The notes beneath the pieces are model-generated. The model ran no database searches and had not been told where the DNA came from. It saw only the letters and a list, made by a program, of their open reading frames with translations. Both the position numbers and the translations under genes were made by a program. Shown one piece after another: positions 12,031 to 26,381 of a DNA stretch of 26,381 nucleotides; positions within the stretch are counted from its first letter, which is position 1; every line of letters begins with the position of its first letter. The DNA lies in the IMG/VR virus record IMGVR_UViG_3300021472_000137; one strand, 5' to 3'. This stretch comes from a virus.

Positions 12031-12222
12031 TCACCTGTCCTTCTGTTTATCTATGCTTCTTGCCAGTATCGTCAGCAGCTCTACTTTCCTTCTTTCCCAC
12101 TCCAGCGTCGTTTCCATAAGCCTCATTAGCACCTCATATCTCATCCTCTCTAATTTTATCTGCTCCAGCTCTATTTGCTTCTCCAATACTTCCTTATCTT
12201 CATGCATTTCCATCCCCTCCAT
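12031..12222 (-). CDS. Small coiled-coil protein
   Basis: E/K/R/L heptads; operon position. Confidence 0.65.
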   Translation of the reverse strand: MEGMEMHEDKEVLEKQIELEQIKLERMRYEVLMRLMETTLEWERRKVELLTILARSIDKQKDR

Positions 12223-12820
12223 TCATCATCAGCACCGTCCTGAATATTTCCGCACCTCTTCCACGCCCTTTCTTCTTTTTCTTCTTATTCTTATTTTCAC
12301 TCTTCGGCGACTTGAACAAATCGTCAACATCACGCACAGAGTTCATCGCTATCTCAATTAATTCATCATCATCCGCTAAATAGCCCATCAGAAGCAATTC
12401 TGCGGGCGAGTAAAATCTCGTGAGTGCAATTTTACCCAATTTCTCCGTGAGCTTTCGCCCCTCCTCCTTCTCTTTCTTCTCACCATTTCCCTTCACGGCA
12501 GCAGCACGCATACGCATCTCCTTCGCCTTTTTCACATAATCCTTCAACTTATCATCCGCAACGATTTCTTCAACATTCGTCACATTCATATTTAAGCTGT
12601 TGCATATCTTGCACTCTTCTAACCTGCGAGCATATTTCAGCACTTCTTCCAGCGTGAACCTCTTATCGTAGAAGACACGAGCAGGCACGAACACATCTTC
12701 ATTCTCTAAATACCCAATTTCAACTTTCCACCCTCGCTCTGGCTCTTCTTTCGTCTCTACGATTTTCGCCTGCGGGAAAAATTCCACAATATATCCGTCT
12801 TCGGTTTCTCTGACCTTCAT
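12200..12820 (-). CDS. Hypothetical protein, long paralog
   Basis: N-terminal ~65 aa homologous to 12817-13059; CKIC; lysine-run C-terminus. Confidence 0.85.
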   Translation of the reverse strand: MKVRETEDGYIVEFFPQAKIVETKEEPERGWKVEIGYLENEDVFVPARVFYDKRFTLEEVLKYARRLEECKICNSLNMNVTNVEEIVADDKLKDYVKKAKEMRMRAAAVKGNGEKKEKEEGRKLTEKLGKIALTRFYSPAELLLMGYLADDDELIEIAMNSVRDVDDLFKSPKSENKNKKKKKKGRGRGAEIFRTVLMMNGGDGNA

Positions 12821-13059
12821 TCTCCCTCTCTTCTCTTAGCCAGCATCTCTCTCATGTATTTTTCTCCTCTCTCTGCGTATTTCCGCACTTCATCCAGCGA
12901 GTATCTTTTGTCGTAGAATACACGGGCAACAACAAGCCTATCTTCTAAATCCCCAATCTCCACCCACCATCCTATCTCTGGTTCTTCTCGCCTCTCCACC
13001 ACTTTCGCCTCTGGAAAGAACTCTACAATATATCCCTCCCCGGTCTCACGAATTTTCAT
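12817..13059 (-). CDS. Hypothetical protein, short paralog
   Basis: MKIRETGEGYIVEFFPEAKVVE..GWWVEIG..ARVFYDKRYSLDEV matches next gene. Confidence 0.85.
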   Translation of the reverse strand: MKIRETGEGYIVEFFPEAKVVERREEPEIGWWVEIGDLEDRLVVARVFYDKRYSLDEVRKYAERGEKYMREMLAKRREGE

Positions 13060-13072
13060 CTCTCACCGCCCC

Positions 13073-21382: not shown

Positions 21383-22423
21383 TCACACCGCAGACACTAC
21401 CGCAGACCACCCGTAAAGCTCTGCTTCCAGTATGTATGTTGCTCTCGTGTCCGCAAGCGCCGTAGAAGGCATTAGCACATCTACATACAACGAAATGCCG
21501 TCGCCAGGGTCTACAGGCTCGCTCACATCAGAGCTGAACGAGAACTCCTTGCCTTCCACATCCCCCGTCCCCTTGAATGTAAGCTTCACTTGATATGTCG
21601 CTCTTATCCCATCCGTCGGGTTCTCAACCCTCAACCTGAATGTATATGCCGAACCCACAGTGATAATGCGGGGAATTCTTGACTCTCCGACATTTATATA
21701 GCCTTTCACCTCGCCCTTACGCACCTCAATCTCAATCGGAGGCGCTGGCGGTGCTGGCGTCAGCTTCGTCAGCGTGATATACTTATCTGTATCTTTATAT
21801 ACTGCAACAGTAGTCTCGTAGTCCGCATACCCTCTCTTTGTGAGTTTGATTTTATAAATCCCCTCACGAATCTTGAATGTTTCAGGCGTCAGCCTATATG
21901 TGTCCTCGCCCTCAATGAAAATCATCGCACCAGGCGGGTCGGACACTATCGTAAGGCAATGATAACCACTCCCTGGCGGTGGAGGGCACTCCTCTTTTGA
22001 AATCGGCTCCCAAGTAGGACCAGGTGTCGGCGGAGTAGGCGTAGGTGTCGGAGTAGTCGGAACGGGTGTCGGCGTCGGTGTTGGCGAAGGCGTCGCAACT
22101 TCCGTATAACAGAACTTGTTCGGAGCATCAGAATGATTCGCTATCCAAACTATGTCCTCATCTGTTAAAGCAACACCCCCGTTCTTTTCCCTTAATTTCG
22201 CCGCATCTATTTTGCCCGTTTTGTTGTATTTATCCTCGTAAGAGTAGCCTCCATCTAATATTGTCACCACTGCATCAACAGTGGAACCCCAATACTCCTC
22301 ACCTTTGGGAGTATATACTAAAACCGTTGTCGCATCTGTGTCTGTGAAACAGTATTTATTCGCCTCTGGTGATTCGCCCAAATACTTTGCTATGTATCTC
22401 TTGCATTCTTCTGTCAGCGCCAT
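21383..22423 (-). CDS. Pro-Thr linker + PEGA + Ig-like domain protein
   Basis: ATG 22423 coupled by TAATG; TPSPTPTPTPVPTTPTPTPTPPTP; PEGA LTIVSDPPGAMIFIEG...TP...EGIYKIKLTKRGYADYETTV; C-terminal FRLRVENPT..YQVKLTF. Confidence 0.88.
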   Translation of the reverse strand: MALTEECKRYIAKYLGESPEANKYCFTDTDATTVLVYTPKGEEYWGSTVDAVVTILDGGYSYEDKYNKTGKIDAAKLREKNGGVALTDEDIVWIANHSDAPNKFCYTEVATPSPTPTPTPVPTTPTPTPTPPTPGPTWEPISKEECPPPPGSGYHCLTIVSDPPGAMIFIEGEDTYRLTPETFKIREGIYKIKLTKRGYADYETTVAVYKDTDKYITLTKLTPAPPAPPIEIEVRKGEVKGYINVGESRIPRIITVGSAYTFRLRVENPTDGIRATYQVKLTFKGTGDVEGKEFSFSSDVSEPVDPGDGISLYVDVLMPSTALADTRATYILEAELYGWSAVVSAV

Positions 22424-23061
22424 TATGACCACCCGCACCCTATCTTCGCATCTCCCATACTATACAGCTCCAAGTAATAATAACGCACTCCTAAATATTG
22501 CTCCCATGAAATCGGCGAAGGAATGCTCGCAGGTCTTATGTCTTCTGGAATCGCTTTCCTCCTTGACTCCGCCAAATCACTCAGACCTAAATACTCATAG
22601 CGCAACGCAAGCACATGATTCCATGTCAGATTTCCCTTTCCAGCACTCTCCACATAAGCACACACCTCAGCATTCGGCACTGGTGTCGGCGTTACGGTTG
22701 GCGTCGGCGTTACCGTTGGTGTGGGTGTCGGTGTCGGCGTAGGTGTAGGCGTCGCAACCGCAGCACAGTATGGTGGCGTCTTCTCCTGCTCTTCACAAAC
22801 CGTCTTGACATCTTCTATGTCTAAATCATAACCATTCGCTTTTACAAAATCCTCGTAACTCTTCCCATTCACGATTTCTTTCGTCGTGTAGGGATAGCCT
22901 AATAACGATGCAACAACGAGCATCGCAGCGACATCCGTCGTTGAACCCGTGTGAGAATTGCCCTCTAAATCCTTGTAGGAGACGCCTGACGATGCAAAAC
23001 AGTTGTTCACGCCTGCATTGATTGCAAGCCAGTCCTTCCCACCATTCGTGAGTGTCATCAC
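22423..23061 (-). CDS. Pro-Thr linker protein with C-terminal Cys-bracketed module
   Basis: ATPTPTPTPTPTPTVTPTPTVTPTPVP, then VCAYV...YYY...GDAKIGCGW. Confidence 0.88.
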   Translation of the reverse strand: MMTLTNGGKDWLAINAGVNNCFASSGVSYKDLEGNSHTGSTTDVAAMLVVASLLGYPYTTKEIVNGKSYEDFVKANGYDLDIEDVKTVCEEQEKTPPYCAAVATPTPTPTPTPTPTVTPTPTVTPTPVPNAEVCAYVESAGKGNLTWNHVLALRYEYLGLSDLAESRRKAIPEDIRPASIPSPISWEQYLGVRYYYLELYSMGDAKIGCGWS

Positions 23062-23300
23062 GAATCACCCAACGCACATGGCGTCTTCTTATCCCCTTCT
23101 CTCACATTTCCCTTATAGTATTCCACCGCTCCATATATATAATCTTTCGTGGAAACATCAAACCCTAAATCTTTTACCCCACAGAACGCTAAAATCAAAT
23201 CCTTCAACTTCTCCGAGCTCGGATTCGAGGGCAAATCCTGAACGAATGCGCAAAATCCCGTATGCACCTTCCCTACTGTCCGCTCATCCTGCTTCGCCAT
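23058..23300 (-). CDS. Stand-alone Cys-bracketed dockerin-like module protein, 80 aa
   Basis: FCAFV..KLKDLILAFCGVKDLGFDVSTKDYIYGAVEYYKG..GDKKTPC. Confidence 0.8.
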   Translation of the reverse strand: MAKQDERTVGKVHTGFCAFVQDLPSNPSSEKLKDLILAFCGVKDLGFDVSTKDYIYGAVEYYKGNVREGDKKTPCALGDS

Positions 23301-23306
23301 CGTCTC

Positions 23307-24206
23307 TCATGCGTAGAGCGTCGCATCTATCGTGTAAGTTCCGCTCTGCAGGTTCAGCGGCAAGTCCCAACGCACATATATCTTGTCCTTCTTCCCAACA
23401 TCTATGCTCTTCTTCGCACTCGTTAGCGTCGTTGAATAGCCCGGTCCTGAAATCTTGACATCTACCCAGTAATTCGCCTTTATCTTGCCTGTGTTCTCCA
23501 CGCACACCCCTATGTTTATTGAAGTCCCCGCCTTCGCCGACGACGGAATGTCATGCTCATCGCATATTTTTCCCTTCGGCGCTGGCGTGCAACAGTTCGC
23601 ACATATCGTGTTCGCATCCTTCCCATCCGCTTTTTCAACAAAATCCCACTCCGCAACTGTGATGTTGCCTTTTGCGTGGTCTATCCATGCATTATCAGAG
23701 GAAACCACGCACTGGTCATCCGCATAGTGCTTCAACAACTCGCAGCCGCTTGAATAGTGCGGTGTCGCCTCCCAGCATGTAACCTTCTTCTCCACCTTGA
23801 AAGTGTCGCTTCTTGAATAGGAGCGCAGATTCACCCAGTTCCCCGTGCGAGGGTCTTTCGCATCCAAATACACCGCAGTTATCGTATATGTTTTGTCCGC
23901 CGTAAGCCCTAAATCAGGAGGCTGTGCCTTGAAATATATCCCCTTAGTCGTGCCATGCGTCATCTTTCCTGTGCCATAAGTATCCACCGCACCGCTCAAC
24001 GACGGCGAAATGCTTATGCGCACCCTATACTCCAAATCCAGCGAAGAATCCGCATGAACAACGCAGTAATAGAATTCATAGTATGCAGATGCCGCCTCTG
24101 GAACATTGCCGACGACTTTGAAATCGCTGAGCTTCGCATCCACCCCCGTCACTGAAATCTCTTCTATTGCTCCTATCCGTATGTCCCTTTTATGCATCTC
24201 TACCAC
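23307..24206 (-). CDS. Ig-like/CARDB-type multidomain protein
   Basis: C-terminal AKAGTSINIGVCVENTGKIKANYWVDVKI...KIYVRWDLP...GTYTIDATL; N-terminal beta-sandwich; Cys-rich helical middle. Confidence 0.82.
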   Translation of the reverse strand: MVEMHKRDIRIGAIEEISVTGVDAKLSDFKVVGNVPEAASAYYEFYYCVVHADSSLDLEYRVRISISPSLSGAVDTYGTGKMTHGTTKGIYFKAQPPDLGLTADKTYTITAVYLDAKDPRTGNWVNLRSYSRSDTFKVEKKVTCWEATPHYSSGCELLKHYADDQCVVSSDNAWIDHAKGNITVAEWDFVEKADGKDANTICANCCTPAPKGKICDEHDIPSSAKAGTSINIGVCVENTGKIKANYWVDVKISGPGYSTTLTSAKKSIDVGKKDKIYVRWDLPLNLQSGTYTIDATLYA

Positions 24207-24215
24207 CTCACACGC

Positions 24216-26159
24216 TCACCAGCCACAATCATATTCGCCCCCTTTGTATATTTTTACTACGCCCTCTATGTCTTTGCGAAGCACCACAAATCCTACATCT
24301 CTGAGATTATTGAATGCGAGAATTAATTCTGCAATATCCATTGATGTGACTTTCGCAGGAAGCCACTCGCACAACGGCAGCGGTTCCTTCCCTTTCACAA
24401 TCATCTTCTTTGAAAGCCTTATCCATTCATGAGATGCATCGCCATCCATTAGTGTGAAGCGAACAAAATCATACCCCTCTACTGAGACCTCAATCTCTTT
24501 TTCGGTAGGTCCCAATATTCCACTCTCCTCATAGAGAGTGCTCCATTCCTTCATATCCTCGCTTCCTTCTACCTTTATACCCCACCATGCGTTCCGCCTC
24601 ACTTTGAATTTCAACGATGAGCCACGAACACGCATCACAAGGCGGGGATACTCCTCTCCTTTTACTCTAGTTGAATACCACCACTCATCTTCCTCGGTGA
24701 GAACTTCATCAGGGTCTTCCACTTGCACAAAGAACGGCGAATCCTCCGCCAGAACAACAAGCTCACAAACTGGAAAAGTGTCAATCTCGCCGAAAATGAA
24801 CTGCTCAAGCAGCTCATAATCTCCCCAATCTATTATGCCATCCGCATTCACATCCGCCCGCCTTTTCTGCTCTTCCGTAAGCGTAACGAGGCCTTGGATA
24901 TATTCCCCGAGTAGTCTCGCATCCTTCGGGGACACATAGCCATCATCATCTAAGTCCCCGTAATCCTTACACGGCGGTCTCGGAGGCTCCTTTACACGCA
25001 GTTCCTTCGTTACAGAGCAACTCTCGTTCTGCAAATAGATGAAATATGTGCCTGTTTCTTTGGCTTCAAAACTTTCACTGCCACTACCGCTCACAGTCTC
25101 CTTCAGAACATACTCGTATGATGGCGAAATAACCTTCAAAGTCGTGTCCGCAGGCGCATTCTCATACTCCACTTCAACATATATGTATTGCACCGTCTCC
25201 GTGACCTCCTCGCCCCCAACCTTAACACTCAACGAACACGGCGGAGGCGTCGGGGTCGGCGTAGGTGTGGGCGTTGGAGTTGGAGTAGGGGTTGGCGTAG
25301 GTGTCGGCTTCGCAGGAACTGTTCTCTCTATTTCCTCCACCACTTCTTCGCTCTCTGTCGCCTTTTCAACCTCCACTAACTTGAAAACAATCGTGCCTTC
25401 AGATGGAGGGCTCGGAATGAGAAGCGTCGTGCTTAGCGTAGGCAAATATATCGTGCCTTCTGTCAGTTTCTCGCCATCAGAGAACACACGAATCTTATAG
25501 TAGTAACAATATTCACTATCGCACTTCTCAACATTCGGCACAATTGAGACAGCCGCATACAAATAACCATCCTCCCAATACAACTCAACAGAGCGGAAGT
25601 GCGATGAAAACAAAGCGAACATGTGATTCAGGAACCACGCCTTGACAAACGCAACATACCCTGAATCCTTTCGCTCATATTCGTATGTGTAAGGCAGCAA
25701 GCCCACTTCGCTGTAAAAGTCACGAATTCGCTGGAAAGCATCATCAAAAGTATCGCCATAAATGCCCCAGTATGGAGGCTTACTCACACTTCTGACATCA
25801 TAACCTAATAATTCCGCCAACTCTTTTATCCTGTCAAGAAACAAATCCTCACGAGAGAGATGCTGACCCTGCCACTTGATATAACATCTTCCGTAGCCCA
25901 CACAACCATCCGTGCAATGCTTGTGATGCACATATTCAAGCGTGAAACCTAAACTCTTAATCTCGTCTTGCACAGATTTCTTCAGTTCCACGCATTCTCT
26001 CGACACACAAATCACGGAAGAATTCGGAAAAGGCGGTGTTACCTCCACATCTAAAAGCTGTCCTATGTTCTCCCAAACTTCAAATGAGCCGTATTCATCA
26101 GGCTCGGTATTACCATACGCCTTCTTGTATAGTTCCTTGACCGCCTCCTTCTTGTCCAT
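24216..26159 (-). CDS. 647-aa multidomain protein: Pro-Thr linker, Ig-like domains, dockerin type I, C-terminal Cys-bracketed module
   Basis: (PT)~12; YGDLDDDGYVSPKDARLLGEYIQG..LTEEQKRRADVNADGIIDWGDYELLEQFIFG = duplicated EF-loop/helix dockerin (~24770-24965). Confidence 0.9.
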   Translation of the reverse strand: MDKKEAVKELYKKAYGNTEPDEYGSFEVWENIGQLLDVEVTPPFPNSSVICVSRECVELKKSVQDEIKSLGFTLEYVHHKHCTDGCVGYGRCYIKWQGQHLSREDLFLDRIKELAELLGYDVRSVSKPPYWGIYGDTFDDAFQRIRDFYSEVGLLPYTYEYERKDSGYVAFVKAWFLNHMFALFSSHFRSVELYWEDGYLYAAVSIVPNVEKCDSEYCYYYKIRVFSDGEKLTEGTIYLPTLSTTLLIPSPPSEGTIVFKLVEVEKATESEEVVEEIERTVPAKPTPTPTPTPTPTPTPTPTPTPPPCSLSVKVGGEEVTETVQYIYVEVEYENAPADTTLKVISPSYEYVLKETVSGSGSESFEAKETGTYFIYLQNESCSVTKELRVKEPPRPPCKDYGDLDDDGYVSPKDARLLGEYIQGLVTLTEEQKRRADVNADGIIDWGDYELLEQFIFGEIDTFPVCELVVLAEDSPFFVQVEDPDEVLTEEDEWWYSTRVKGEEYPRLVMRVRGSSLKFKVRRNAWWGIKVEGSEDMKEWSTLYEESGILGPTEKEIEVSVEGYDFVRFTLMDGDASHEWIRLSKKMIVKGKEPLPLCEWLPAKVTSMDIAELILAFNNLRDVGFVVLRKDIEGVVKIYKGGEYDCGW

Positions 26160-26191
26160 TTCTCTCCCATCACTTCTTCATCACTTCTTCA

Positions 26192-26381
26192 TCACGAGCG
26201 ACGCATACGCTCTAACAAACGCCACAACCTCAAGAAGCCCGCAAACTTGCAACCTGTCAAATCATCACCCGTGTCAATATCGCCTCTCTTATACGCTGCC
26301 ATCCCGTAAATCGCATCACGATTCACAGTGAAGTAGTAATCAATAATGCCGTTGAACGCTAAAATCATCTGCTGAATATCC
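26192..26381 (-). CDS. C-terminal fragment of another protein carrying the Cys-bracketed module (5' end outside window; not in ORF track)
   Basis: Frame from 26380 reads DIQQMILAFNGIIDYYFTVNRDAIYGMAAYKRGDIDTGDDLTGCKFAGFLRLWRLLERMRRS*. Confidence 0.85.
   Translation of the reverse strand, partial: DIQQMILAFNGIIDYYFTVNRDAIYGMAAYKRGDIDTGDDLTGCKFAGFLRLWRLLERMRRS

Follow-up and report, generated by a model that had tools for sequence, protein, structure and literature searches.

Module A in the operon at the right end of the window

The DNA described here, called the window throughout, is the complete 26,381-nucleotide stretch of the IMG/VR record IMGVR_UViG_3300021472_000137, whose source is an uncultured, probably archaeal virus. 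The right end of the window is occupied by a tight operon on the minus strand, in which a small domain bracketed by cysteines, referred to as module A, is repeated. In the direction of transcription (5' to 3'), the operon encodes a protein whose gene is cut by the window end (62 amino acids (aa) are seen), followed by proteins of 647, 299, 80, 212 and 351 aa. The genes of the 80- and 212-aa proteins overlap in TGATG, and those of the 212- and 351-aa proteins in TAATG. Two small proteins, two GT2 glycosyltransferases and a Dam-type methyltransferase are encoded downstream of the 351-aa gene. The majority of the remaining open reading frames (ORFs) of the window are ORFans.

The copies of module A and the segment adjoining the first of them are as follows; E values are those of the family hidden Markov model (HMM) unless stated otherwise.

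26243..26380, minus strand: module A copy 1, C-terminal part of the gene cut by the window end (E 3e-19; BLASTP to the copy of the 647-aa protein, E 2e-8)
26195..26242, minus strand: basic amphipathic tail of 16 aa following copy 1, read from the translation; stop codon at 26192-26194
24219..24383, minus strand: module A copy 2, a short variant ending in CGW, C-terminus of the 647-aa protein (gene 24216-26159; E 6e-15)
23073..23261, minus strand: module A copy 3, nearly the entire 80-aa protein (gene 23058-23300; E 1e-22)
22426..22671, minus strand: module A' (copy 4), C-terminal, diverged copy in the 212-aa protein (E 1.1e-4, match in two pieces)

The sequence-only reading of the window had noticed a Cys-bracketed two-helix module in four neighboring genes, and all four peptides that it quoted are found where it placed them, on the minus strand. 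The C-terminus of the 647-aa protein matches the 80-aa protein (BLASTP E 4e-10, 48% identity over 42 aa) and the ORF at the window end (46% identity over 39 aa), and has no significant BLASTP match to the 212-aa protein (E 8.7). The family HMM, built from 49 module A sequences and run on all 644 six-frame segments of the window, recognizes all four copies, and the next-best segment has an E value of 4.7. The repetition in four genes is thus borne out. In the 212-aa protein, the two pieces of the match lie on either side of an extra loop; a MAFFT alignment places 17 additional residues between the two helices. Module A' retains the Cys-x-aromatic motif, the Gly-Gly-like turn, both helices and the Gly-Asp ... 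Gly-Cys landmarks. Judged by the pairwise BLASTP and family-HMM scores, the window holds three clear copies of module A and one diverged but supported copy.

Further diverged copies had been suspected in the Cys-rich helical segments of the 299- and 351-aa proteins. This suspicion is not upheld, as the family HMM has no match in either protein even at an E value of 100. The segment of the 299-aa protein is given here.

23592..23810, minus strand: Cys-rich central segment of the 299-aa protein, not a copy of module A (BLASTP E 2e-4 to residues 178-261 of the family member P0035)

Neither the HMM of module A nor that of module B (described below) matches this segment. The homologous residues of P0035 keep an EF-hand-like Asp-rich loop and precede an A module. 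By these comparisons, the 299-aa protein has in its Cys-rich middle a small helical segment of a third kind, distinct from module A.

The module A family

A profile of the three clear window copies and the orthologs of the 80-aa protein (A1 profile) was run on 1.84 billion representative proteins. It finds 45 proteins or clusters at E<=1e-3, eight of them at E<=1e-10; of these 45, two repeat proteins that match in five short stretches were set aside as spurious. The module is about 65 aa long, and its rough consensus is C-x-W ... GG ... DIxxLVxAYxG ... LGFxVT ... IxGxVAYYxGN ... SGNxLTGC. Both bracketing cysteines are invariant in the 37 family members aligned, and a disulfide bond probably joins them. 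In every true match, module A is the last folded domain, followed in a few members by a short basic amphipathic tail.

The domains found ahead of module A in the 37 members are diverse: PEGA in 10 proteins, PKD in 6, Dockerin_1 in 5 and Big_2 in 2, with a single instance each of SNase, polysaccharide lyase, CBM_4_9 and fn3. Proteins consisting of module A only occur in several lineages, and the 80-aa protein has 15 ortholog clusters with 73-99% identity. An N-terminal signal peptide was found in none of the 15 proteins checked (12 members bearing module A, the 299- and 351-aa proteins, and P0018). A full-length homolog of the gene cut by the window end, P0020, has 997 aa and consists of one transmembrane (TM) segment, a PEGA-like region, two PKD domains and then module A. 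The 16-aa tail of copy 1 recurs behind module A in P0020 and also in P0019 and P0021, which carry unrelated cargo; other members end in basic tails that differ from it. The 16-aa tail may contact a membrane or nucleic acid. Module A is thus a real, autonomous, strictly C-terminal domain carried by many different cargo proteins.

Searches for a known counterpart gave no match on module A in Pfam, NCBIfam, PHROGs or PADLOC, and a profile search of the Protein Data Bank (PDB) sequences gave chance matches only (E>0.3). The ESM Atlas returned nothing for module A or module B. Among IMG/VR-type viral contigs there is no relative of the 647-aa protein, of module A (searched with two alignments) or of module B, and no GenBank phage matches module A or a 350-aa capsid candidate. 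Literature searches gave no description of such a module. On these profile searches, module A is a real, previously undescribed family that is not named in databases.

The family is rare in cellular genomes. A pattern scan of 185,579 species genomes gave a single copy of module A, on a virus-like contig of 8.9 kb binned as Parcubacteria (L001), and 400 further genomes of that phylum hold no copy. Because of this single copy and its location, the family seems to be specific to viruses or mobile elements. Exact peptide patterns are needed for the scans of genomes and metagenomes, which gave one and four loci, so that the statistics of gene context are thin: five loci outside the window, three of them informative. 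One family member is a PEGA protein named by NCBI from a metagenome-assembled genome (MAG) of Candidatus Syntropharchaeia, and at least some of the virus-like elements that use module A are linked to Syntropharchaeia- or ANME-type archaea. Many dockerin and cohesin proteins are found in ANME archaea (PMC9012536), and capsid proteins of ANME-1 viruses are undetectable by sequence (PMC9894754); both reports fit this context, and neither describes module A.

A further connection to the Parcubacteria-binned contig lies elsewhere in the window. Genes 12203-12835 and 12820-13062 (minus strand) both match one N-terminal region of about 80 aa in the protein encoded at L001:891-1592 (E ~1e-7). By this match they are tandem paralogs, and they connect the 'Parcubacteria' MAG contig with the window.

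Predicted fold and internal duplication

AlphaFold predicts the 80-aa protein with a mean predicted local distance difference test score (pLDDT) of 83.7. With a deeper alignment (A6), module A of the family member P0028 reaches a pLDDT of 93-97 and contains helices at residues 118-124, 130-140, 152-162 and 166-173. In the predicted fold, the first Cys thus lies on an N-terminal helix, the duplicated pair of helices comes next, and a further short helix precedes the last Cys. The description of the module as a two-helix unit is right for the duplicated pair and falls short of the model, which has four helices.

The two halves of module A align in register with one another (hhalign P 1.5e-4 over 18 columns), which supports the view that a loop-helix unit of about 22 residues has been duplicated within the module. 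The duplicated helices also vary together. In 28 of 48 sequences, against 10.5 expected, the two halves have the same residue at position 3 of the helix, and this shared residue takes several states, Met, Ser, Thr and Asn; position 10 agrees in 24 of 48 (9.1 expected). None of 10,000 shuffles reaches such concerted identity at the two positions, in a statistic that ignores phylogeny. The same parallel change of both helices is seen in the orthologs of module A'.

Relationship of module A to dockerins

Type I dockerins (PF00404) bind cohesins in cellulosomes and in non-cellulosomal archaeal surface proteins. Like module A, they are domains of about 60-70 aa located at the C-terminus of modular cargo, and they are built of a duplicated loop-helix unit, the two repeats of which vary in concert. 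Repeated recognition residues of this kind underlie the dual binding mode of dockerins. A canonical dockerin is present in the 647-aa protein itself, ahead of its module A.

24765..24974, minus strand: canonical type I dockerin with both calcium loops, Cys-bracketed (PC...TFPVC), residues 400-455 of the 647-aa protein (Pfam Dockerin_1 E 7e-10)

This dockerin and all eight other dockerins of the family members are flanked by conserved cysteines (PC ... TFP[VI]C), just as module A is. Because the canonical dockerins of these proteins are also Cys-flanked, a terminal Cys staple seems to be a design rule of this protein set. Both dockerins of P0032 already have a degenerate second calcium loop.

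Dockerins are also the family that recurs most among the structural matches of module A, with whole-domain coverage. Five dockerins are within the top 17 of 48,161 PDB chains, at low Z scores of 2.9-3.5, and two of these entries recur with the independent model of the 80-aa protein. Since few dockerins are possible among the PDB representatives (an estimated few dozen), this recurrence in comparisons of predicted models is suggestive, and the scores alone are no proof. Foldseek searches of PDB and BFVD gave nothing at E<=0.001.

The differences from dockerins are equally clear. In the alignment of 49 sequences, module A has none of the two calcium-binding F-hand loops (Asp/Asn at positions 1, 3, 5 and 12); the corresponding positions hold Gly/Trp/Ser or Leu/Gly/Phe, and only an Asp resembling that of position 12 is common. 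The linker helix of dockerins is absent, with the second degenerate loop directly after the first helix, and module A has in addition an N-terminal helix with an invariant Cys as well as the invariant C-terminal Cys. The Pfam dockerin model never matches module A, either in the window proteins or in the 37 members, and no profile-profile similarity is found. Homology of module A to dockerins was dropped after hhalign comparisons of the module and of its halves came out null. As defined by profile and calcium loops, module A is not in the dockerin family. The earlier proposal of dockerin-like duplicated helices that have lost their calcium loops therefore keeps the duplication, the concerted variation and the recurring structural matches, and loses the homology at the sequence and profile level.

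Module A occurs together with true dockerins in five proteins and is thus not simply a dockerin substitute, and none of the window ORFs scanned has a Pfam match to cohesin. By analogy, module A may nevertheless work like a dockerin. A pair of EF-hands also resembles module A in being a tandem helix-loop-helix, with a hydrophobic spacing after the 12-residue loop that is similar by eye. The calcium ligands are again missing from module A, however, and EF-hands are not among the structural matches listed; Pfam matches to EF-hand do occur among family members, not placed to a protein region.

Exchange of module A between cargo proteins

That module A is interchangeable, as the sequence-only reading proposed, is confirmed by pairs of nearly identical cargo carrying different subtypes of the module. 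The N-terminal domain of the 212-aa protein is 77-95% identical among orthologs, and their C-terminus is either module A' or a canonical subtype of module A. P0063 and the 212-aa protein are 94% identical over residues 2-116 and then continue into unrelated A subtypes, the junction being in the Pro-Thr linker. P0034 resembles the 647-aa protein in its N-terminal and immunoglobulin (Ig)-like parts (81% and 72%), and its Pro-Thr linker runs straight into the A subtype of P0063, with no dockerin or beta-sandwich between them.

The DNA that codes for the Pro-Thr linkers at 22013-22074, 22681-22754 and 25246-25308 of the window consists of imperfect tandem repeats. As the junctions of the domain swaps fall in such repeat-encoded linkers, the linkers may be recombination joints.

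Module B and its connection to module A

A second module, module B, heads the two proteins encoded directly after the 80-aa protein.

22747..23061, minus strand: module B, N-terminal domain of the 212-aa protein, about 105 aa (BLASTP E 9e-12 to the contig L001 and E 2e-20 to the locus L004)
22067..22429, minus strand: diverged module B', N-terminus of the 351-aa PEGA protein (gene 21383-22438; B HMM E 1.2e-6 over the full model)

The PEGA match of the 351-aa protein has an E value of 1.6e-9. The start codon of this protein is probably the ATG at 22423, in the TAATG overlap, rather than the GTG upstream of it. With this start, its N-terminus and that of module B are aligned. Module B has a Cys pair of its own, and in P0039 both of these cysteines are absent together. 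By BLASTP and HMM matches, module B is a second undescribed, shuffled module that heads different proteins. A profile match of module B to a cellulosomal X-dockerin chain in the PDB (E 0.44) was judged to be chance.

In the window and in two further, divergent elements, the gene directly after the gene of module A carries an N-terminal module B (L001:6189-6896 and L004:10328-10855). The B HMM also detects three kinds of proteins in which module B is fused to a following module A (P0028, P0039 and P0046). This conserved gene order, the overlapping genes and the B-A fusions suggest that modules A and B are functionally linked. In L004, a metagenomic contig, the pair of genes is followed immediately by an IS605-type TnpB/OrfB transposase gene (L004:10992-12308).

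Possible function of module A

By combining these observations, it is possible to propose how module A is used. Module A would be a helical protein-protein connector of about 65 aa, probably stapled by a disulfide, which resembles a dockerin in architecture and logic and has no calcium loops. From the C-terminus, it would link Ig-like, PEGA, PKD and enzyme proteins, which have no signal peptide, to a partner that they share within a surface structure of several proteins, most likely on the virion. The two duplicated helices would form a pseudo-symmetric binding face, in which two positions per helix define the specificity subtype, and recombination in the DNA of the Pro-Thr linkers would transfer these subtypes among cargo proteins. 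The most likely partner would be module B, N-terminal in the 212- and 351-aa proteins and encoded after the module A gene. Proteins in which module B, a linker and module A follow one another, such as the 212-aa protein, would act as adaptors.

The general part of this proposal, that module A is a calcium-free, dockerin-like docking or assembly domain plugging modular surface proteins together, has in our judgment about an even chance of being correct; the binding, the partner, the disulfide and the location in the virion are all inferred. The more specific version is doubtful. According to it, modules A and B dock to one another as a pair that is encoded by the virus, independent of calcium and stapled by disulfides, module B being a new receptor fold, and together they would build a combinatorial, shuffled surface scaffold of viruses of ANME-type archaea or Syntropharchaeia. 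Such a scaffold might consist of a membrane-anchored spike ending in module A, of the B-linker-A adaptors, and of cargo headed by module B or tailed by module A.

Several results weigh against the docking proposal. Comparison of module A with the nine co-resident dockerins by hhalign gave a probability of 0.1%, with a dockerin set that is small and local, and comparison of its halves with 23-aa dockerin segments gave P values of 0.16 and 0.23. The test of concerted variation carries no phylogenetic correction. The location in the virion comes from context alone, namely the ORFan-rich virus-like contigs and a putative capsid assignment. At the locus L002, the gene after the module A gene has no module B according to the B HMM. 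In the model of P0028, a natural B-A fusion, the predicted template modeling score (pTM) is 0.43 and module B has a pLDDT of about 50. Because module B is poorly modeled in this fusion, no A:B contact is supported, and intramolecular docking within P0028 was not retained as a candidate.

The C-terminal position of module A is that of many fiber tips, and the module could instead be the distal host-recognition tip of fibers or spikes, an adhesin for the S-layer, a glycan or a cohesin-like receptor of the host. Module B would then be the virion anchor, and swaps of module A would alter the host range. Two observations agree with this: the B domain stays 80-95% conserved among close relatives that differ in their swapped C-terminal module, and several A subtypes are present within one element. 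Module A is, however, 50-70% identical across elements with unrelated cargo, which is unusual for receptor-binding tips. In the lyase, CBM and nuclease proteins, the cargo rather than module A is the likely business end. With such enzyme and CBM cargo, it is plausible that module A is the attachment end and not the tip that binds the host. The proteins made of module A only are also hard to account for, and the basic amphipathic tails on some copies speak against a tip as well, so that we consider a role as adhesin unlikely.

The same A-only proteins could complete a bundle if module A were a knot that binds to itself or to other A modules, holding different cargo proteins together in one spike with no separate receptor domain. 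Four different copies in one operon and the pseudo-twofold internal symmetry of the module would suit such a knot, and the single copy at each of the other loci fits homo-oligomers. Oligomerization leaves unexplained the conserved order of the A and B genes and the B-A fusions, and it seems to us quite improbable. Least credible is a role for module A as a C-terminal export or sorting domain, which would take proteins lacking a signal peptide to the host cell surface through a secretion or attachment machinery. The strictly C-terminal position on extracellular-type proteins without Sec signals and the cysteines near both ends of the module would agree with sorting. Module A is, however, a confidently folded 65-aa domain with no hydrophobic anchor, no known sorting motif and no NCBIfam match, and the A-only proteins would have no cargo to sort. 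The signature of PGF-CTERM and PEP-CTERM (motif, TM helix and basic cluster) is absent from module A, some members having basic amphipathic tails only. Hydrophobic windows in module A occur only in P0017 and P0018, on amphipathic core helices, and there is no genuine TM helix. Module A is also nearly absent from cellular genomes and so has no co-occurring host machinery. Sorting is thus very unlikely.

The docking proposal has parallels in known virions. Tailed phages carry decoration and fiber proteins with Ig-like domains (Big_2, fn3 and PKD), and the spikes of icosahedral viruses that contain a membrane, PRD1 among them, have N-terminal domains that anchor them at the vertex. In both cases, as here, proteins without signal peptides are built of Ig-like domains, and one terminal module serves for attachment to the particle while the others are shuffled. 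The proteins described here differ in that two terminal modules, the C-terminal module A and the N-terminal module B, are shuffled by way of Pro-Thr linkers, and neither is similar in sequence to the known phage anchoring domains.

Implications

Modules A and B are two domain families missed by current databases. Should module A prove to be a docking tag, uncultured archaeal viruses would be assembling their modular surface proteins with a previously undescribed protein-protein connector that is very small, free of metal, and equipped with natural specificity subtypes and a built-in staple. Such a connector would be a possible source of orthogonal connector pairs for protein engineering. If modules A and B do form a pair, the arrangement would follow the logic of a 'viral cellulosome', functionally analogous to dockerin and cohesin. 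Docking through module A would account for the combinations of PEGA, PKD, Ig, dockerin and enzyme domains seen in these viruses, and it would provide a handle for spotting virion proteins in the ORFan-rich genomes of archaeal viruses.

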